Part shown: positions 4,855 to 13,262 of the stretch, in pieces
Numbering within the stretch: the first letter of the stretch is position 1
Layout: every line of letters begins with the position of its first letter
Assembly: GCA_048885925.1 (NCBI GenBank)
Contig: JBHLLG010000020.1
Coordinates: forward strand, 1-46,391
Reading direction: 5' to 3'
From: Candidatus Hermodarchaeota archaeon
GTDB lineage: Archaea; Asgardarchaeota; Lokiarchaeia; Sigyniarchaeales; SOKP01
Length of the DNA stretch: 46,391 nucleotides
Notes under the pieces: generated by a model
What the model was told of the DNA's origin: nothing
Databases searched by the model: none
The model's input: only the letters and a program-made list of their open reading frames with translations
Program-made: the position numbers and the translations under genes

Positions 4855-5377
4855 TTAATCACCTCTTACTTTATCAGCATACTCTCCTTCATCTATTCGT
4901 TTCTGAATTATTCTCGGATCTTCTCCTTCTACTGTTAATCCTACCGACAATGCTGTTCCTAAAACAGTTTTAATTGCTGATTTATATGTTTTATCTAAGA
5001 ACTTCTCTCTTTTGGCATCAACTACATTTTTAATTTGTTCAAGTGTTAAATCTCCTATTTTTTGCTCTGAACATGAAGAACTACCTTTCTCTACACCTGC
5101 TTCTGCGAGTAATAGTGAAGCAGTTGCAGGAGTTTCAATAAAAATTTCAAATTCTTTTGTTTCTGGATCGCATTCAATTCTAACTGGAACTGTCAAACCC
5201 CTGAAGATTTGAGTTTGTTTGTTAACCTCGTCGACCACATCCTTAATGTCTACATGGAAAATCGAATTGATTTTCGTTTATGCCAGTTGGTCCAACTGCA
5301 GGTCCGATGGGCGGTCCTCCTGATGCACTTCCTCCGGTTACGAGAGCTTTTACAATAATTTTCCCTTTTTTACTCAC
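4855..5377 (-). CDS. rpl11: 50S ribosomal protein L11 (uL11), two exons: 5377-5278 joined to 5249-4855, 164 aa
   Basis: GTG start at 5377 with a GGTGA SD upstream. Exon 1 encodes MSKKGKIIVKALVTGGSASGGPPIGPAVGPTGI, the conserved L11 N-terminus. Removing 28 nt gives ...GPTGINIKDVVDEVNKQT... in frame with the 127-aa ORF. Confidence 0.92.
5250..5277 (-). other. Putative BHB pre-mRNA intron in rpl11 (28 nt)
   Basis: mRNA strand: UG-GCAU-AA|A-C-GAAAAUC-AAUUC-GAUUUUC-C-AUGU-AG|A-CA. It has a 4-bp central helix and two 3-nt bulges. Cuts after the 2nd bulge nucleotide restore the frame. Confidence 0.85.
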
Positions 5378-5404
5378 ATACTTTCACCGTAATATTCTTT
5401 TTTT

Positions 5405-5528
5405 AGTTCAAAAAGATTATTCAAAAGGTTCAGAACGCGAGATTGCATTTTTAAACTTATTTCAATATCATCTCTATATTGAAACCGCTTTAATTTGCGT
5501 CCTAAGTCCTTTAGAAATTTTTTGAACT
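5405..5528 (-). promoter_or_regulatory. Long stem-loop in the putative 5' leader of the rpl11 operon
   Basis: Nested inverted repeats on the mRNA strand: AGUUCAAAAA/UUUUUGAACU, AAAGG/CCUUU, AGGACGC/GCGUUCU and UUUCAAUAU/AUAUUGAAA. A TATA-like TTTTTTAACT lies at 5561-5552 upstream. Confidence 0.6.
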
Positions 5529-5576
5529 TAGTAATTTACTGAATTAATGAAAGTTAAAAAATTTTTTTAAATTAGA

Positions 5577-5762
5577 TTAAAATCTGCAACACAATCTTCT
5601 TCCAAAATTTAAATCATGTTTTAAATATTCCTCACACAAAACATTTAAGATTGTTTCGTAATCTAAATTAACTTCTTTAACAATTTCCTCGATCTGAATT
5701 CCAGGAGTAGCTATTAAATCAAAGATTTGTTTCTTAGTTTCGTTACTAATTTCTGAGGTCAT
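5577..5762 (-). CDS. Small hypothetical protein (possible HTH-like), C-terminal RRLCCRF
   Basis: 61-aa ORF with ATG start and a plausible amphipathic helical pattern, filling the intergenic space. Confidence 0.6.
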   Translation of the reverse strand: MTSEISNETKKQIFDLIATPGIQIEEIVKEVNLDYETILNVLCEEYLKHDLNFGRRLCCRF

Positions 5763-5824
5763 TATGGTAAATTATAACTATTTCCTAATAAATTTTAACT
5801 ATAAATAAGTTTAATAATTGAACC

Positions 5825-6508
5825 TTAGTTCTCTCCTTCTAAGATCACTTTATGCGTAATTTTACCAATCTTTTCTATGCTAGCTTCAATAGTATCTCCT
5901 GGTTGAATTGGCCCTACTCCGCTTGGTGTTCCAGTAGCAACAATATCTCCAGGTAATAACGTGATAAATTTAGAAAGATATGCTAAAATATCTGGAATTT
6001 TAAAAATCATATGTTTTGTATTTGACAGTTGACGAATTTCGCTGTTAAGCTTTAACTGAATGTTTAAATTATGAGGATCTTCTATTTCACTTAAAGGTAC
6101 TATGCGTGGTCCAATAGGACCAAAACTGTCGAAATTTTTACTTCTATACCAGGGTAAATTGATATTTCTATCATTGATCTGCATTTTCCTAGCAGTTATG
6201 TCAAGGAAAATAGAATAACCTTCTATATATTCATAGCTTTGTTCTATGCTAACATTTTTACAAACCCGAGAAACTATAAAAGCTAATTCTACTTCATGAT
6301 CTACATGATTATATTCTGGATTATTGTATAGAATTTTTGGATATATTATTGGATTCCCATTAGTTACCAAAGTATTTGTTGTTTTTGCAAAAAATACTGG
6401 ATTTTCAGGTATCTGTGCTTTCATTTCCTTTGCATGATCTATATAATTTCTCCCTAAACAAATTATTTTAGTTGGTTCTATTAATCTATTTCCTATTTTA
6501 AAAATCAT
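5825..6508 (-). CDS. Fumarylacetoacetate hydrolase family protein
   Basis: Motifs KIICLGRNYIDH, DHEVELA, DITARK.Q, RSKNFDSFGPIGP and PGDIVATGTPSGVG. Confidence 0.93.
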   Translation of the reverse strand: MIFKIGNRLIEPTKIICLGRNYIDHAKEMKAQIPENPVFFAKTTNTLVTNGNPIIYPKILYNNPEYNHVDHEVELAFIVSRVCKNVSIEQSYEYIEGYSIFLDITARKMQINDRNINLPWYRSKNFDSFGPIGPRIVPLSEIEDPHNLNIQLKLNSEIRQLSNTKHMIFKIPDILAYLSKFITLLPGDIVATGTPSGVGPIQPGDTIEASIEKIGKITHKVILEGEN

Positions 6509-6511
6509 AAA

Positions 6512-7186
6512 TTATTCACCTTCTAAAACAACCTTATTTGTGAGGGTTCCTATTTTTTCAATTGTGGCTTCAATAATATCACCTGGTACTATTGGACCTA
6601 TTCCACTAGGTGTGCCTGATGCAACTATATCTCCAGGTTCAAGAGTAAAAAAAGTTGAAATATACTCTATCAATTTGGGGATTTTAAATAATAAATGTTT
6701 AGTATTAGATGATTGTTTAATTTCTCCATTCAGCTTTAAATTAATATTTAAATTATGCGGATCTTTAATCTCATCTGTATTAACTAGTCTTGGTCCTATC
6801 GGTCCGAAAGTATCAAAGGATTTAGAACGAAACCATGGTAATTTAGATACGATGTCTTTTGCTTGCATTTTTCTCGCTGTAACATCATTAAACACAGTAT
6901 ATCCAAGAATATGATTGTATGCTTCTTCTTTTTGAATGTATTTACACTTATCTTTTATGATAAATGCCAATTCAACTTCATAATCAACTCTATTATATTT
7001 TCGATTGCTATAAAGAAATTTTGGATATATAATAGGTTCATAATTTGAAATTAAACAATTCAATGTTTTTGGGAATATAACAGGTTCTTTTGGAACAGGT
7101 AATTTAGTTTCCTCAATATGATCCATATAATTCGTTCCTACACATATTATTTTAGTAGGAGTGATTTTATGAGTTCCGAGTTTCAT
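6512..7186 (-). CDS. Fumarylacetoacetate hydrolase family protein (tandem paralog)
   Basis: Motifs KIICVGTNYMDH, DYEVELA, NDVTARK, SKSFDTFGPIGP and PGDIVASGTPSGIG. Confidence 0.93.
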   Translation of the reverse strand: MKLGTHKITPTKIICVGTNYMDHIEETKLPVPKEPVIFPKTLNCLISNYEPIIYPKFLYSNRKYNRVDYEVELAFIIKDKCKYIQKEEAYNHILGYTVFNDVTARKMQAKDIVSKLPWFRSKSFDTFGPIGPRLVNTDEIKDPHNLNINLKLNGEIKQSSNTKHLLFKIPKLIEYISTFFTLEPGDIVASGTPSGIGPIVPGDIIEATIEKIGTLTNKVVLEGE

Positions 7187-7315
7187 ATTGTCTATAGAAT
7201 CTTTTTATGATAAAAACAAAAATTAAATTAATTTTATGAATGATTAAAGTTTAAAGAAATTTATTCCAAGAATTACGAATTAGTTAAAAAAAATCTTTAA
7301 AATTATAATGATAAA

Positions 7316-7906
7316 ATGAATGAAGTTAATACCAATGAATTAAAAGAAAATAAACAAGAAAAACGTATATTTCAACACATTATAAGTAAAAAGGTAGCAG
7401 CAACAGGAATTTTTGTTGCTGTGGGATTAGTTTTAAGTTATTTAAATCCATTTGGTTATTTTGAAATATTTGGTACTAAAATAAACCCATTTGCTCATTT
7501 TATAAATGCTATTACCGGAGTATTAATTGGTATTGCTTTTTCATGTATAACAGCACTAGGCATTGCTATTCTTCGATTTTCATTAACAATTGGCACTATT
7601 CATGCATTTCATGGAGGAATAAGTGGAGCATTTATTGTGGGAATCGTATCATACTTTTTTCGCAAAAAATTTCCTAAATATGTTGAACTAGCTGCTTTAT
7701 TAGAGCCATTGGGAACAATTTTTATAGGCGGGACTATTGGTCACCTAATTGCCCCTATTGGAGGCATTTTTGTAATTGAGAGTTTATTTACATATTGGAT
7801 TCTATTTGCTTTAAGCTGTATTCCGGGATCTATAATGGGATTTATAATTCTAATGGTCTTGAAACAAGCAAGAATAACTTGGGAAGAATTTTTTGAACCT
7901 CAATGA
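7316..7906 (+). CDS. thiW: ECF transporter S component, ThiW-like
   Basis: About 6 TM segments; motifs P.AHFINAITGVLIG, LRFSLTIGTIHAFHGG and EP.GT..IGG resemble ThiW. Confidence 0.7.
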   Translation: MNEVNTNELKENKQEKRIFQHIISKKVAATGIFVAVGLVLSYLNPFGYFEIFGTKINPFAHFINAITGVLIGIAFSCITALGIAILRFSLTIGTIHAFHGGISGAFIVGIVSYFFRKKFPKYVELAALLEPLGTIFIGGTIGHLIAPIGGIFVIESLFTYWILFALSCIPGSIMGFIILMVLKQARITWEEFFEPQ

Positions 7907-8511
7907 TTAATATAACAAATCTTATGAAAATTGATTTATCTTTCAATTATAAAGAATTCATTGGACATCATACACTTCTTTTTGGAGAAACTAATACTAA
8001 AAAGACTTATTACACAGCAAAATTTGTTCAATTCCTAATAGAATCAGAACATATTAATCCTAAAGAAATAAGCATTTTAGATTTTGCGCCGCCTCAAAAT
8101 GTAATTAGGGGTATTAAAATCGGAGGTAAAATAAAGGATTTCTATAATCGCAGTATTATTTGCAATAATATCTATTATAAAGGAAAGATTATCCCACCAC
8201 GACTTAAAGCAATAAATAAAAAAGACTTATATCGATTTGCTTGTAAAAATTTCAAGAAAACATTTAAAATGTTAAATAGGTTTAGCGAGAATCCAACTCC
8301 AATATTAATTGTAAATGATATATCAATCTATCTTCATGTAGGGAATAAAAAACTTTTATGTAACTCAATAAGTAAATCTAATACTTTTTTTGGCAATTGC
8401 TATTATGGAAAATCTATTCAAAGTGATTTTACTACTCTTTTTAGTTTAAGAGAAAAACGATTAACCGAATACTTAATTAAAAAAGTAGATTTTTCCTATA
8501 ATACGGGATAA
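7903..8511 (+). CDS. Hypothetical protein with degenerate P-loop NTPase fold
   Basis: Walker A-like HTLLFGETNTKKT, ILDFAP, and Walker B-like ILIVNDISIY. Overlaps the thiW stop (ATGA). Confidence 0.6.
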   Translation: MINITNLMKIDLSFNYKEFIGHHTLLFGETNTKKTYYTAKFVQFLIESEHINPKEISILDFAPPQNVIRGIKIGGKIKDFYNRSIICNNIYYKGKIIPPRLKAINKKDLYRFACKNFKKTFKMLNRFSENPTPILIVNDISIYLHVGNKKLLCNSISKSNTFFGNCYYGKSIQSDFTTLFSLREKRLTEYLIKKVDFSYNTG

Positions 8512-8627
8512 ATTTTTCTTATATAAAATTTCGAAATTTAATTTTAAAAATTACAAATAAATTTCTCCCTCTTAAAATTTAGATATAATCATTTAAGCAA
8601 TAGTTATTATAATTATATCAAGAAATT

Positions 8628-9560
8628 TTGTTAAAAATGATTATGCTAGATAACTTTTCAAATTTCATGGTATTTGGATTAAAAGATACTGGTGAAAGAG
8701 AAAGGATAAATATAACAGAGCAAGAATTTTCTCAAACTAATGGACATAAAATCCTACATAATTCACAAGTTGTAATAATAATAAAAGAAGAGTTAAGGCG
8801 AATATATATTTGGAAAGGTTACCAATCGAATGTCAGGAAAAAGTTTATTGCTTCACGTGTAGCCCAAGATCTCCAAAAAAGATTAATAGATATCGCTAAT
8901 TTTCATAGATGTAAAATAGTTTCAATCGATCAAGGAGAAGAGCCTCAAGAATTCCTAAACGCATTTGGATTTAAATCACAAGAGATACCTAAGAAAAAAG
9001 AAATAAATCAACCCTTCTTTTCAAGATTAAATACTCGTATAATAGAAGAAGTAGCTCAAATACCAAAATCTTCTGGTAATTCGAGAGATAAGAATATAAA
9101 GACTATAAAAAATTTGAATCCGATATTAAATAAATCGAGAGAAGAAATCATCAATAATATCATTCATACTCAACCTTCAAATGGGTATAAACGAAATCAT
9201 ATCTTAATAGGAAATATTATTCTCTATGGAATTGTAACAAAAAAAACTGAAATTTTTGGTAACCCTATTGAAGAATCCGTATGGGAACCTTTTGAAAAAC
9301 TCCCAAAAGAAATTTTTGAATTAAATGGTCACAAATTAAGAATACATTTTAATAAGAATTCAAATTCCATTGAAGCAATTGAAGTTCTGGAAAAAATTTC
9401 TAAAATAAAAAAAGAAGAAAAATCAGAATTGAAAGTAAACTATAATAAATGGACAGTTAAACAATTAAAAGATTTTTGTGTTAGGAATGATATAAAAGTC
9501 CCTTCTTCATATAGAAAAGCACAAATCGTAAGTCTTGTTGAAGAATTTAATAAATCCTAA
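8628..9560 (+). CDS. Asgard gelsolin-domain protein with C-terminal SAP/HeH/Rho-N-like domain
   Basis: Gelsolin motif RIYIWKG..SNVRKKFIASRVA...IVSIDQGEEPQEFL; C-terminal YNKWTVKQLKDFC..NDIKVPSSYRKAQIV. Confidence 0.8.
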   Translation: MLKMIMLDNFSNFMVFGLKDTGERERINITEQEFSQTNGHKILHNSQVVIIIKEELRRIYIWKGYQSNVRKKFIASRVAQDLQKRLIDIANFHRCKIVSIDQGEEPQEFLNAFGFKSQEIPKKKEINQPFFSRLNTRIIEEVAQIPKSSGNSRDKNIKTIKNLNPILNKSREEIINNIIHTQPSNGYKRNHILIGNIILYGIVTKKTEIFGNPIEESVWEPFEKLPKEIFELNGHKLRIHFNKNSNSIEAIEVLEKISKIKKEEKSELKVNYNKWTVKQLKDFCVRNDIKVPSSYRKAQIVSLVEEFNKS

Positions 9561-9690
9561 ATATAATTGGATGAATTTATTTAGATTTTAATTATTTATT
9601 GAAACTTTAAATTCTATTTTTAACTTTTCTTTTTAATGTTACATTATTAGATAGCAATTTAATAGCTTAAAAATGCAAAGATGATTTGTC

Positions 9691-10329
9691 ATGAAAAAAG
9701 TAATATTATTTGGTCCTCCAGGAGCCGGAAAAGGAACTTTTTCCTCCCAGATTAAAGAGATTTTACCAGAAATTATACATATTAGTACTGGAGATATCTT
9801 TAGAGAAAATTTAAAGAATGAAACCCCTCTCGGTTTAAAGGCTAAAACTTATATGGATAAGGGTGAATTAGTCCCTGATGATGTTACAATTGAAATGGTA
9901 AGAGATAGACTAAACAAAGATGATGTTAAGAAAAATGGATTTATTCTTGATGGATTTCCTCGGAATATTTCTCAAGCAGAAGCTCTTTCTAAGATGACAG
10001 AAATCGATAAAGTTATTTTACTTAATGTACCGCAAGATATAATAATAAAAAGAATACTTGGACGCTACTCTTGTCCAAACTGTGGAGAAATTTATAATAA
10101 ATACTTTATGAAGCCAAAAAAGGAGGGAATTTGCGACAAATGCAGTAATAATATAGAATTTAAACAAAGACCTGATGATACAGAAGAAACTCTAAAAAAT
10201 CGATTAGAAGTATATGATAAAAATACAAAACCCTTAATTAAATATTATAAAAACCAAAAATTAGTCAAAGAAATTGATTACTCCAACAAATTACCTGAAA
10301 AAAAAGTAAAAAAAGTTATTGGAATATAA
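9691..10329 (+). CDS. adk: Adenylate kinase (bacterial/eukaryotic long type, Zn-binding LID)
   Basis: Motifs GPPGAGKGT, HISTGDIFR, GELVPD, GFILDGFPR, CPNC..CDKC LID and QRPDD. Confidence 0.93.
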   Translation: MKKVILFGPPGAGKGTFSSQIKEILPEIIHISTGDIFRENLKNETPLGLKAKTYMDKGELVPDDVTIEMVRDRLNKDDVKKNGFILDGFPRNISQAEALSKMTEIDKVILLNVPQDIIIKRILGRYSCPNCGEIYNKYFMKPKKEGICDKCSNNIEFKQRPDDTEETLKNRLEVYDKNTKPLIKYYKNQKLVKEIDYSNKLPEKKVKKVIGI

Positions 10330-10355
10330 AATTTTTATATTTTTTTTGATTATTT

Positions 10356-11108
10356 ATGAATCCTAATATTTGTATAACTATTCCCATTAAAACAAATCAG
10401 TTTGATAAAATTTCTGCTTCCATTAAAAGAGCATTAAATGAAAAACCTGAATTTATTGAATTAAGATTTGATTTTATCAAGAATATAGAAGAATTAACCA
10501 GTGAATTAATTATTAATTTAAAAAAGATGTGCCATCCTACAGCATGCTCAATTTTTACATTTAGAAATTATCTTGAAGGAGGAAATATACAAATTAGTGA
10601 AGGTAAACGATTTAGTATTATTGAATCTCTTATTAATGCTAAACCTAATTATATTGATGTTGAATTACAGAGTAATTTTACTCAGTTGAATCAAATATTA
10701 AGCAATGCTAAAAAAAATGATGTAAAAATTATTGTTTCATATCATGATTTAAAAAAAACTCCTTCTTATAAAGATGCCTTGGATCTTATAGAAACGTTAA
10801 AAATGGAATTCATTAATAAATGTTTATCTAATTTGGAAGATAGTGAGGATATTATCTATAAATTTGTGTTCACGGTTCAAAATTTTGAAGATAACATAAT
10901 ACCACTAAAAATATGTAATTATTTTAGAGAAAAAAACCAGAAAGTAATATCTTTTTGTATGGGAGAAATGGGAATTTTCTCAAGAGTTCTATGTCCTTTA
11001 GTGGGTTCATTTTTAACATATGTTTCGTTAGATGAAAAAGTAGCACCAGGGCAAATTAATATCAAAACAATAAAAGAACTTTTTAATTTATTGATAAATA
11101 ACCTGTAA
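10356..11108 (+). CDS. aroD: Type I 3-dehydroquinate dehydratase
   Basis: Motifs IELRFD, IFTFR...EGG, YIDVEL, IVSYHD, FCMGE.G..SR and APGQI. Confidence 0.92.
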   Translation: MNPNICITIPIKTNQFDKISASIKRALNEKPEFIELRFDFIKNIEELTSELIINLKKMCHPTACSIFTFRNYLEGGNIQISEGKRFSIIESLINAKPNYIDVELQSNFTQLNQILSNAKKNDVKIIVSYHDLKKTPSYKDALDLIETLKMEFINKCLSNLEDSEDIIYKFVFTVQNFEDNIIPLKICNYFREKNQKVISFCMGEMGIFSRVLCPLVGSFLTYVSLDEKVAPGQINIKTIKELFNLLINNL

Positions 11109-11169
11109 CTTTTTAAATTAATAAAATTAGAACTATAAAGATTAAATTGTATATTTTTTACTATATTAT

Positions 11170-12375
11170 ATGGTAATCCATTTTGCTTTTTTGTTTCATA
11201 TATATCAACCCCCCGTACAGATTCCTCTCGTAATTAAACAGATTGTAAATGAGTCCTACAAACCTATTATGGAAGCGTTAAGAGATCATCCTGAGGCAAA
11301 GATTACTTTAAATATCAACGGTACTTTAACTGAACAACTGCATGATTATGATTATGACGATTTGATTGGATTAATTACTACCCTTGCCTCAAATGGGCAA
11401 ATTGAATTTACTGGGTCTGCTAAATTTCATCCTCTGCTTCCCTTAATTCCAGAACCCGAAATTAAGCGTCAAATAGAATTGAATAATCAAACTAATCGAC
11501 ACTTTTTTGGAAAACTTTATAATCCTCGTGGATTTTTTCCTCCTGAAATGGCAGTGAATGGAGAAGTATTTAAAACAGTTAAAAAGAGAAAATTTGATTG
11601 GATGATTATGAGCGGAATTGCTAATACATTGCCAGAATTTCCTACTAATAATATATCCGTACATCCCAATGGATTAAAAGTGTTATTTAGAGATGATTAC
11701 ATCTCAATTGATTGCGCATTTGATAAAATAAATAATGTTGAAACGTTCGTTAATAGATTAAGATATAAAAACACTAAAGATGATATGTACATAATCATAG
11801 CAATGGATGGAGAAACATTTGGACACCATGTTAAACATGCTATACATGACTTTTTAGTCCCATTGTTTCAAACTCTCCCTCACAGAGATGATGTTAAAAT
11901 CTGTACAGTATCAGAAATTGTTAATAGATTCCCTAAAGGATTTACACAAGTTCCGCGAGATTCAAGTTGGTCGACCATGCCGTATGACATCGCTAATGAT
12001 GTTCCCTTTCCATTATGGTTCGACCCTGACAATGAAATTCATATAGAACAACATAAATTTTTCATGTATGCTCTTACGCTGATTCATTTAGCCGCTAAAT
12101 ATAGGGATAGTATGAATGAAGATAAGAAAAGAATTTTCAATAATGCAAGAAATCTTTTAGATCGAGGAACTCACAGCTGTCAGCAATGGTGGGCATCACA
12201 ACGACCTTGGTATTCTCCTGATATGATTCTACGCGGATTAAATGAAATTCTTATGGCAAGTGTGAACGCTAAGCGTAGTATTCCTGAGAATATTCCAGAT
12301 ATTAAAGAAGCTATGGAATTAATAATGAATGATATGCTAAAAGCTCAAAATAAAATTGTATTATCCTTAATGTGA
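11170..12375 (+). CDS. Glycoside hydrolase family 57 protein
   Basis: Motifs HIYQP, ESYKP, HPLLPL, FFPPEMA, AMDGETFGHH and SSWS. Confidence 0.9.
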   Translation: MVIHFAFLFHIYQPPVQIPLVIKQIVNESYKPIMEALRDHPEAKITLNINGTLTEQLHDYDYDDLIGLITTLASNGQIEFTGSAKFHPLLPLIPEPEIKRQIELNNQTNRHFFGKLYNPRGFFPPEMAVNGEVFKTVKKRKFDWMIMSGIANTLPEFPTNNISVHPNGLKVLFRDDYISIDCAFDKINNVETFVNRLRYKNTKDDMYIIIAMDGETFGHHVKHAIHDFLVPLFQTLPHRDDVKICTVSEIVNRFPKGFTQVPRDSSWSTMPYDIANDVPFPLWFDPDNEIHIEQHKFFMYALTLIHLAAKYRDSMNEDKKRIFNNARNLLDRGTHSCQQWWASQRPWYSPDMILRGLNEILMASVNAKRSIPENIPDIKEAMELIMNDMLKAQNKIVLSLM

Positions 12376-12432
12376 AAATTTGATGCGTAAAAAATAGAAA
12401 AATAAATAAAAAAAGTCATTTTTTACATATTT

Positions 12433-12669
12433 TTAATTCTTCTTGAAAAGATTTCCACAATCTCCACATTTAACGCTTCGAGAGTCTCAGCGGAAGAAGC
12501 TGAACTAACTTTTCCTATACTGGTGTGCCCTGCCTCAGCGGTAGGCTGAATTAGCTTTACCAATACTGTAGTATAGCACATTATTCCTATCTGGCTCCTC
12601 ATGAAGCTTACGTGGATTTTCATTACCACATTGAGGACATTTTACTCGTGAAAATTTATATTCTGTCAT
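12433..12669 (-). CDS. 58-aa zinc-ribbon protein, three exons: 12669-12563, 12533-12517, 12485-12433
   Basis: Missed by the ORF track. The spliced product MTEYKFSRVKCPQCGNENPRKLHEEPDRNNVLYYSMQGTPVYSRSVKCGDCGNLFKKN has paired CxxC knuckles. Exons sum to 107+17+53=177 nt. Confidence 0.85.
12486..12516 (-). other. Putative BHB pre-mRNA intron 2 of the zinc-ribbon gene (31 nt)
   Basis: CAGU-AU|A-GGAA-AA-GUU-AGUUC-AGC-UUC-UUCC-GCUG-AG|A. The junction gives CCA GTA TAC TCT (PVYS). Confidence 0.85.
12534..12562 (-). other. Putative BHB pre-mRNA intron 1 of the zinc-ribbon gene (29 nt)
   Basis: CAGU-AU|U-GGUA-AA-GCU-AAUUC-AGC-C-UACC-GCUG-AG|G. The junction gives AGT ATG CAG (SMQ). Contains an in-frame TGA if retained. 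Confidence 0.85.
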
Positions 12670-12731
12670 GTTTTTTTCCCTTAAGTCTGTTATAGATATA
12701 TAAATATTTAGTAGAGTTTGTAAATTTAAAT

Positions 12732-13262
12732 TTAGGTTTTTAATTTAGTTTTTATAACAATCTCTCGCACAATATTCTTAATTTTTTTATTTGAAGTATA
12801 AATAACAATCTCTGCTGCATCATCATAATAGGATTTGCGAAGATTTAGAATTTTCTTTATTTCTCTTTTAGGATCTTCTTTATCAAGAATTGGTCTAGTT
12901 TCTTTCCCATTTTTTAATATTCTTTTATAGATTTCTTCTGGAGTTGCTTTTAATAATACAATATGACAATTTTTTTTTAAATTTTCAATATTGGTTTTAT
13001 TCAAAACTACTCCACCTCCACATGAAATAACAACTTTCTTTAAGTTAGAAACCCTCTCGCATATTAATGATTCATACTCTCTAAATTTACTCTCACCATC
13101 TGTGGCAAAAATTTTTGGAATTAATTTACCTACTTCTTTAATGATAAGTTGATCTGTTTCAATAAATCTGTAATCATTGCCAAGAAATTTAGTTAAGGCA
13201 TTTCCAATTGTGGATTTTCCAGTTCCCATAAATCCAATAAGCGCAATAGAATTTTTGCTCAT
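12732..13262 (-). CDS. aroK: Shikimate kinase (bacterial AroK type)
   Basis: Motifs IGFMGTGKST, GESKFREYE, VISCGGGVV and RPIL. Confidence 0.93.
   Translation of the reverse strand: MSKNSIALIGFMGTGKSTIGNALTKFLGNDYRFIETDQLIIKEVGKLIPKIFATDGESKFREYESLICERVSNLKKVVISCGGGVVLNKTNIENLKKNCHIVLLKATPEEIYKRILKNGKETRPILDKEDPKREIKKILNLRKSYYDDAAEIVIYTSNKKIKNIVREIVIKTKLKT

Follow-up and report, generated by a model that had tools for sequence, protein, structure and literature searches.

What are the three short inserts that break up two genes in a 46,391-nucleotide (nt) stretch of an Asgard archaeal genome, and how could whole proteins be made across them? The stretch, called the window below, comprises positions 1 to 46,391 of contig JBHLLG010000020.1 in GenBank assembly GCA_048885925.1 (Candidatus Hermodarchaeota archaeon). 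The inserts lie on the minus strand (Table 1): one of 28 nt in rpl11, the gene for ribosomal protein uL11, and two of 29 and 31 nt in a small zinc-ribbon gene of the CxxC...CxxC type, where they are called Zn intron 1 and Zn intron 2. They are very probably archaeal bulge-helix-bulge (BHB) introns of the relaxed HBh' type, situated in protein-coding genes, that would be cut by the tRNA-splicing endonuclease EndA and whose exons would be joined by RtcB.

The rpl11 insert leaves two open reading frames (ORFs) of 44 and 127 amino acids (aa) that lie in different frames. It also divides the Pfam L11_N profile, of which positions 1-30 are found in the upstream frame and positions 27-58 in the downstream frame. 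The gene is single-copy, with one match in this genome. The zinc-ribbon gene is in three pieces, separated by its two inserts. The predicted spliced products are 164 aa long for rpl11 and 58 aa long for the zinc-ribbon gene, the latter colinear with intronless orthologs of 56-58 aa. No Rfam or ARAGORN match was found in the window.

In the proposed pre-mRNA, a 4-bp helix would form between four exon bases ahead of the 5' splice site and four intron bases ahead of the 3' splice site. Each cut site would lie in a 3-nt bulge, and an intron hairpin of 8-10 bp would stack on this helix. EndA would cut after the second base of each bulge; RtcB would join the exons and would probably circularise the ~30-nt intron. 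The three inserts would then represent a class of mini-introns, 25-38 nt long overall and 28-31 nt long in this genome, found in housekeeping genes of one Asgard (Promethearchaeota) family and subject to fast gain and loss.

Motif and covariation

In all three inserts, the exon tetramer located two bases upstream of the insert pairs at four of four positions with an intron tetramer located two bases before the insert end, namely GCAU with AUGU in rpl11 and CAGU with GCUG at both Zn introns. Next to this 4-bp exon-intron helix, every insert has a bulge of 3 nt, in which the 5' splice site lies, and then a stacked intron hairpin. Tetramer helix and inner hairpin both appear in the minimum-free-energy folds of the three inserts. 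The arrangement matches the relaxed HBh' form of the BHB motif that is described for archaeal introns in the available text of PMC5829648 and bioRxiv 10.64898/2026.10.13.758758.

A preliminary description of the window, made from the letters alone, had proposed three inserts of one design with a four-base tetramer that changes with the exon. The coordinates, helix and hairpin were confirmed, and the tetramer tracked the exon at every locus examined. The term 'retargetable 4-nt guide' used in that description holds in part: the pairing is real, but it is the central helix of the known BHB motif and not a new guide system. The consensus sequence given there was too specific, as the terminal AG is A-N in relatives and the stem (G/C)G(A/U)AAA occurs only in the three window introns.

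Among 16 sequences of Zn intron 1, 99.4% of 165 cells were paired, and six of the 11 pairs had changed on both sides. None of 500 shuffles matched this, and slid controls paired in 14-51% of cells. The double changes fell in the h' helix (6 of 7 pairs), while the 4-bp helix showed one-sided changes only, each of which kept the pairing (C-G to U.G; U.G to C-G or U-A). For the rpl11 intron (seven sequences), 94.9% of cells were paired against 22-46% in slid controls and two double changes were seen; its covariation was not significant against shuffles (55/500). The central helix was paired in 100% of cells across the 16 Zn intron 1 and seven rpl11 orthologous sequences. The first hairpin pair of the rpl11 intron is a C.C mismatch in this genome and C-G in six of seven relatives, and a strain variant at position 5273 turns a stem pair of the same intron from A-U to G.U.

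Presence and absence in relatives

At the rpl11 site of the window, seven of 23 same-genus loci carried a 28-nt insert and 12 were without any insert. Two further rpl11 sites held inserts of 36-37 nt (three loci) and 35-36 nt (three loci) within the genus; one genome had all three. Zn intron 1 was present in 16 of 21 same-genus loci. The five loci without it, and one locus from another family, were uninterrupted and had ATG at the junction, as splicing would create. Zn intron 2 was found in this genome only (1 of 21 loci). One contig of sequencing run X4, from an independent study, had positions 12469-12518 replaced by 19 other letters and was 31 nt shorter, the size of Zn intron 2, which suggests a co-occurring relative that lacks this intron, as expected of one. 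Additionally, the zinc-ribbon locus of a congener (G015, L035) carried a 30-nt insert that is different from Zn intron 2, forms a hairpin of its own and is placed 5 nt downstream of the position of Zn intron 2; the two are independent insertions at almost one spot.

Across the phylum, 300 genomes were searched with the intact L11 protein of the congener G012. Among the matches listed, 19 of the 63 genomes belonging to the window's family versus 2 of 223 genomes elsewhere showed L11 in at least two pieces, and eight more family genomes had in-frame stops within a lengthened or N-terminally cut match. Twenty family rpl11 loci, picked for a split, cut or stop-holding match, were examined. All 20 carried inserts, in total 29, at four sites near codons 17, 24, 28 and 34. 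In two genomes (G005, L014; G301, L152) rpl11 contained three mini-introns, near codons 17, 24 and 34. With four sites within about 20 codons, the 5' stretch of rpl11 is, on the positions of these putative introns, an insertion hot spot. Inserts near codon 24 (site B), and several with bulged stems, fit only a looser descriptor.

Census of the genome

A census that used no RNA motif was made by aligning ORFs from 1,027,383 nt of G012 to this genome. G012 is without all three window inserts, and the census is blind to introns common to both genomes. Gene names were taken from Pfam scans of the G012 orthologs. Nine inserts were found, in the genes for rpl11, purA, a JAB/MPN protein, a 66-aa protein, a TFIIB-like zinc-ribbon protein, dodecin, an RHH protein, aEF-2 and a PAC2 protein, with lengths of 28, 31, 31, 28, 30, 30, 30, 30 and 30 nt. 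Neither the 66-aa protein nor the zinc-ribbon protein of the window had a Pfam or NCBIfam family above cut-off. The window zinc-ribbon gene escaped the census because its exons are short, and addition of its two introns brought the number of inserts to 11.

All 11 inserts had a complete central helix (4/4, G.U allowed), a 3-nt bulge and at least four of five stacked pairs, at the exact length and place of the insert. The chance of the motif per tested position, estimated from pairing frequencies, is about 0.2%. In tRNA introns, each bulge is cut by EndA behind its second base, and the same cut gave gapless colinearity with the G012 protein in nine of nine census introns. Junction codons of rpl11 and the Zn introns agreed with intronless relatives. 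Eight of the nine census inserts break the frame or carry stops. The ninth, in the PAC2 gene (contig C15, 53118-53147, minus strand), is 30 nt long, in frame and without a stop, and has the full motif; the unspliced protein would gain 10 residues. Introns of this kind are invisible to screens based on frameshifts. In-frame insertions of 7-14 aa numbered 32; five had the motif, and each of these was exactly 10 aa long. The preliminary description had anticipated further introns, hidden as frameshifts or as short in-frame inserts, and both kinds were found.

The reverse comparison gave five inserts of 25-32 nt present only in G012, four of which had the motif. Extrapolated from the part comparable with G012, the 11 inserts would correspond to roughly 30-40 introns genome-wide. 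If the contig chosen for synteny with the window is left out, eight inserts remain in 0.97 Mb, which would correspond to roughly 30 genome-wide, counting only introns absent from G012.

Descriptor and covariance-model searches

A family-specific descriptor with a fixed A[AG]TTC loop was tried and rejected. It gave 260 matches versus 203 in reversed or complemented controls (15 versus 5 if the AG end was required); none looked real apart from the three window introns, and its loop had been set too narrowly. A covariance-model scan, proposed in the preliminary description as a route to further members, also failed: known introns scored 13-24 bits and noise in 175 kb scored 15-20 bits. Model R1 was built from three 30-nt introns; MAFFT could not structurally align dissimilar introns. 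With filters off, R1 placed five of eight other introns or candidates correctly in 2.6 kb, whereas the introns of purA and C40 and one candidate went undetected. When 175 kb was scanned, the rpl11 intron alone among the three window introns appeared (15.9 bits, E = 3.2).

Three further candidates came from descriptor searches, each with a stable hairpin: C5:45896-45925 (loop AUUUC), C12:62467-62497 (loop AAUUC) and C6:5548-5581 (9-nt loop). They join open frames of 177+336, 50+487 and 73+711 codons, respectively.

Splicing enzymes

Genes for both enzymes of the proposed pathway are present. EndA is encoded at C22:7621-8214 (198 aa, with N-terminal and catalytic domains), and the one RtcB gene in the genome is at C12:26362-27669. 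Introns were called by ARAGORN in 19 of 31 tRNAs of this genome, the intron boundaries being unreliable here. A pair of EndA paralogues (about 100 and 72 bits) occurs in 14 of 17 further same-genus genomes, in keeping with the two-subunit, broad-specificity EndA reported for Asgard archaea in the available text of PMC5829648. The second EndA of this organism may lie in unassembled sequence.

Alternative explanations

The assembly is a fragmented metagenome of 181 contigs, and the inserts might on that account be assembly errors, or else the marks of pseudogenes decaying after small palindromic insertions. Neither is credible. The same inserts occur without gaps in contigs from other studies: a contig of run X12 spans 5122-5371 with three differences, and a contig of run X4 spans 12260-12750 and is identical. 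In addition, the same sites are occupied in many species, with compensatory changes, and the interrupted genes are essential and otherwise intact. Ribosomes might instead hop over the inserts by programmed translational bypassing, known from phage T4 gene 60 and the 'byp' elements of a yeast mitochondrion, whose inserts of 27-55 nt lie in coding sequence and are absent from the protein. Short inserts, a 5' hairpin and stops soon after take-off are features of bypassing. Bypassing also depends on take-off and landing codons that match, and it leaves split codons unrestored. On both counts it fails here: no matching codons were found, and five of the 11 introns split a codon (rpl11, purA, the 66-aa gene and the TFIIB-like gene, in phases 1 or 2, and Zn intron 1). 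A conserved residue is built from both exons in the zinc-ribbon gene (AU|G, Met) and in rpl11 (A|AC, Asn), which an in-frame hop cannot do. Nor would bypassing need the exon-intron 4-bp helix, yet its pairing is kept through one-sided changes. Bypassing is thus highly improbable.

Removal from RNA by a nuclease or ribonucleoprotein other than EndA, recognising hairpin and pentaloop, is favoured by the conserved loop, for which EndA offers no explanation, by the weakness of the outer helix and by the finding of only one EndA gene in the assembly. It is nonetheless unlikely, as the cut sites follow the EndA rule exactly at every locus tested and many tRNA introns of this genome need EndA for their removal. 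Splicing by EndA and RtcB has several observations to reckon with. At most sites the exons form little or no outer helix (0-5 bp read from the flanks). In rpl11 this helix is 78.6% paired over two positions; it is strong only at rpl11 site B, where the 5' side is loose. Most introns are accordingly assigned to the relaxed HBh' form rather than canonical hBHBh', so the 3' bulge is poorly defined and cutting by an EndA restricted to the canonical motif would be unexpected. Searches of the assembly, which is 95% complete, revealed no second EndA paralogue. Fold energies of the three window inserts are ordinary against shuffles (z = +0.33, -1.29 and +0.55), and the case is therefore built on comparison rather than stability. 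A strict descriptor combined with frame restoration fully resolves only nine of the 20 picked rpl11 loci. The generic HBh' descriptor, with a hairpin filter and an ORF-fusion test, gave 157 matches versus 138-164 in controls whose 3' cut had been displaced by 1-4 nt; an excess appeared only at energies of -5 kcal/mol or lower with 60 or more open codons on both sides (7 versus 1-3). This descriptor is insensitive because most real introns are in short genes or near gene ends. Among the listed runs that contain the locus none was RNA. The single RNA run compared, from a related study, yielded just two short pieces of partial fit and showed no joint at any of the three window introns.

One mobile family or a shared constraint

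Taking the inserts as BHB introns, a separate matter is whether their likeness reflects common origin. The pentaloop fits A[AGU][UC]U[CUA] in nine of ten introns of this genome versus 40 of 646 background pentaloop hairpins. The nine fitting loops are AAUUC (three times), AGUUC (twice), AGUUU, AACUC, AUUUC and AUUUA; the loop of the PAC2 intron is GUUUC. EndA is not known to need a particular loop sequence. Intron lengths in this genome are confined to 28-31 nt. In pairwise comparison the highest similarity among 91 pairs was between Zn introns 1 and 2 (z = 5.6); other values were 4.7 for C176 with the C5 candidate, 3.9 for rpl11 with Zn intron 2 and 2.9 for rpl11 with Zn intron 1, all measured against mononucleotide shuffles, which ignore hairpin symmetry. 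Except for the resemblance of Zn introns 1 and 2, the stems of different introns share no sequence.

Zn intron 2 lies 17 nt from Zn intron 1, behind the same exon hexamer CAGUAU. The simplest reading is that Zn intron 2 would be a copy of Zn intron 1, retargeted by the 4-bp rule. Plain tandem duplication is less apt, because the micro-exon would have been duplicated too, and it is not. Over 1.03 Mb, the two congeners differ by 11 inserts in this genome and five in G012; these differences, and the restriction of Zn intron 2 to one locus, bespeak recent lineage-specific gains.

These data bear out in part the common-origin mobile family proposed in the preliminary description, which had also suggested a search for reverse transcriptases. 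Narrow length, pentaloop and the likeness of Zn introns 1 and 2 speak for it; similarity between the rpl11 and Zn introns (z = 2.9-3.9) did not stand out enough to establish common descent, near-identical multicopy introns were absent from the genome (blastn-short gave only A+T-rich partial matches), and the 95%-complete genome had no RVT_1 match. The shared design may instead reflect constraint and not descent. The introns would then have originated independently, their likeness being imposed by the need of EndA for the 4-bp helix, the bulge and a stacked hairpin, and by the length of about 30 nt that a minimal stable hairpin reaches at 29% G+C. This explanation, which competes with a single mobile family and leaves splicing untouched, has a little less than an even chance. 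It accords with the lack of any common stem sequence, of near-identical copies and of an RVT_1 gene, and with the near-absence of shared tRNA-intron families in Asgard archaea, unlike Thermoproteales, in the available text of bioRxiv 10.64898/2026.10.13.758758. It leaves unaccounted for the excess of the loop pattern, the confinement of lengths to 28-31 nt, and the resemblance of Zn intron 2 to Zn intron 1 behind the same hexamer. A bolder possibility, which we regard as rather doubtful, is that mini-introns of about 30 nt are actively spreading into the protein genes of one Asgard family, those for ribosomal proteins and elongation factors among them, settling where four exon bases can pair with the 3' word of the intron, and that the conserved A-N-U-U-C pentaloop would be the recognition element of a factor dedicated to their splicing or spread.

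Coordinates of the window features

Table 1. Exons, introns and pairing segments of the two interrupted genes (positions in the window).
Feature	Position	Strand	Basis and remarks
rpl11 (uL11) exon 1	5278..5377	-	GTG start; ends one base into codon 34; ORF list, Pfam L11_N 1-30, colinear with intronless relatives
rpl11 exon tetramer GCAU	5280..5283	-	4-bp central helix with 5252-5255; paired in 7/7 sequences
rpl11 intron, 28 nt	5250..5277	-	one bulge base, 8-pair hairpin, pentaloop AAUUC, tetramer AUGU (5252-5255), two bulge bases
rpl11 exon 2 and stop codon	4855..5249	-	L11_N 27-58 and L11 RNA-binding domain
Zinc-ribbon gene exon 1 (first CxxC)	12563..12669	-	ORF list, relatives
Zn intron 1, 29 nt	12534..12562	-	exon CAGU (12565-12568) pairs with GCUG (12536-12539); pentaloop AAUUC
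Zinc-ribbon micro-exon, 17 nt, between Zn introns 1 and 2	12517..12533	-	comparison with relatives
Zn intron 2, 31 nt	12486..12516	-	exon CAGU (12519-12522) pairs with GCUG (12488-12491); pentaloop AGUUC
Zinc-ribbon gene exon 3 (second CxxC) and stop codon	12433..12485	-	spliced product, relatives

Elsewhere in the window, a tandem duplicate is formed on the minus strand by two neighbouring ORFs, 5825-6508 (227 aa) and 6512-7186 (224 aa), which are paralogous and very similar in sequence.

Relation to known systems and significance

The closest precedent is the BHB intron in the cbf5 pre-mRNA of Crenarchaeota (PMC2738675). In the available text of that source, it too is a short BHB intron in an archaeal protein gene, gained and lost among relatives and linked to hetero-oligomeric EndA. 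It differs in being one intron in one gene, where the present genome has at least 11, with up to three per gene and four rpl11 sites within 20 codons in the family; the narrow 28-31 nt class, the common loop and the Asgard host are further differences. Non-canonical, heavily interrupted tRNA genes of Asgard archaea are described in the available parts of PMC11291895 and bioRxiv 10.64898/2026.10.13.758758. Their introns share with those reported here the presumed enzyme, the motif, a lineage-wide excess, many independent gains and no evident route of arrival, and they differ in lying in tRNA genes; in mRNA no cloverleaf aids formation of the motif. The available text of these two papers holds no mention of protein-gene introns. 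Literature searches returned no report of BHB introns in Asgard protein genes, and the supplementary tables of the tRNA-intron papers could hold cases.

Two other systems show partial likeness. Transposition of tRNA introns in Thermoproteales, reportedly described by Fujishima in 2010, placed related introns at different sites with the BHB rebuilt from local exon bases, and Zn intron 2 beside Zn intron 1 fits that pattern. Here, in contrast, there are no families at least 80% identical, and beyond Zn introns 1 and 2 only architecture and loop are common. In the unconventional splicing of HAC1/XBP1 mRNA the endonuclease is Ire1. A protein endonuclease there cuts mRNA at two stem-loop sites and, according to the available text of PMC8718801, RtcB joins the exons, with no spliceosome. 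Nuclease and motif are different, and HAC1/XBP1 is a single regulated target in eukaryotes.

Overall, the putative introns are best read as the work of a known mechanism, at an unreported scale and in an unreported lineage, and as very unusual for a prokaryote. Archaeal protein-gene introns removed by the tRNA-splicing machinery were previously known essentially from cbf5. Here a single genome of the prokaryotic lineage closest to eukaryotes would contain them by the dozen, with rapid turnover and with essential translation genes among their hosts. Automated gene calling breaks such genes up or cuts them short, which implies hidden errors in the proteomes, marker-gene sets and completeness estimates of this Asgard family. 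If splicing takes place as proposed, cells without a nuclear envelope must either keep ribosomes off unspliced mRNA or tolerate truncated products. Hypotheses that explain the origin of the nucleus by introns invoke this same problem, which could then be tested in living Asgard cultures or metatranscriptomes. Should the introns also prove to be spreading, the family would offer a living prokaryotic example of mRNA intron invasion in the closest relatives of eukaryotes.

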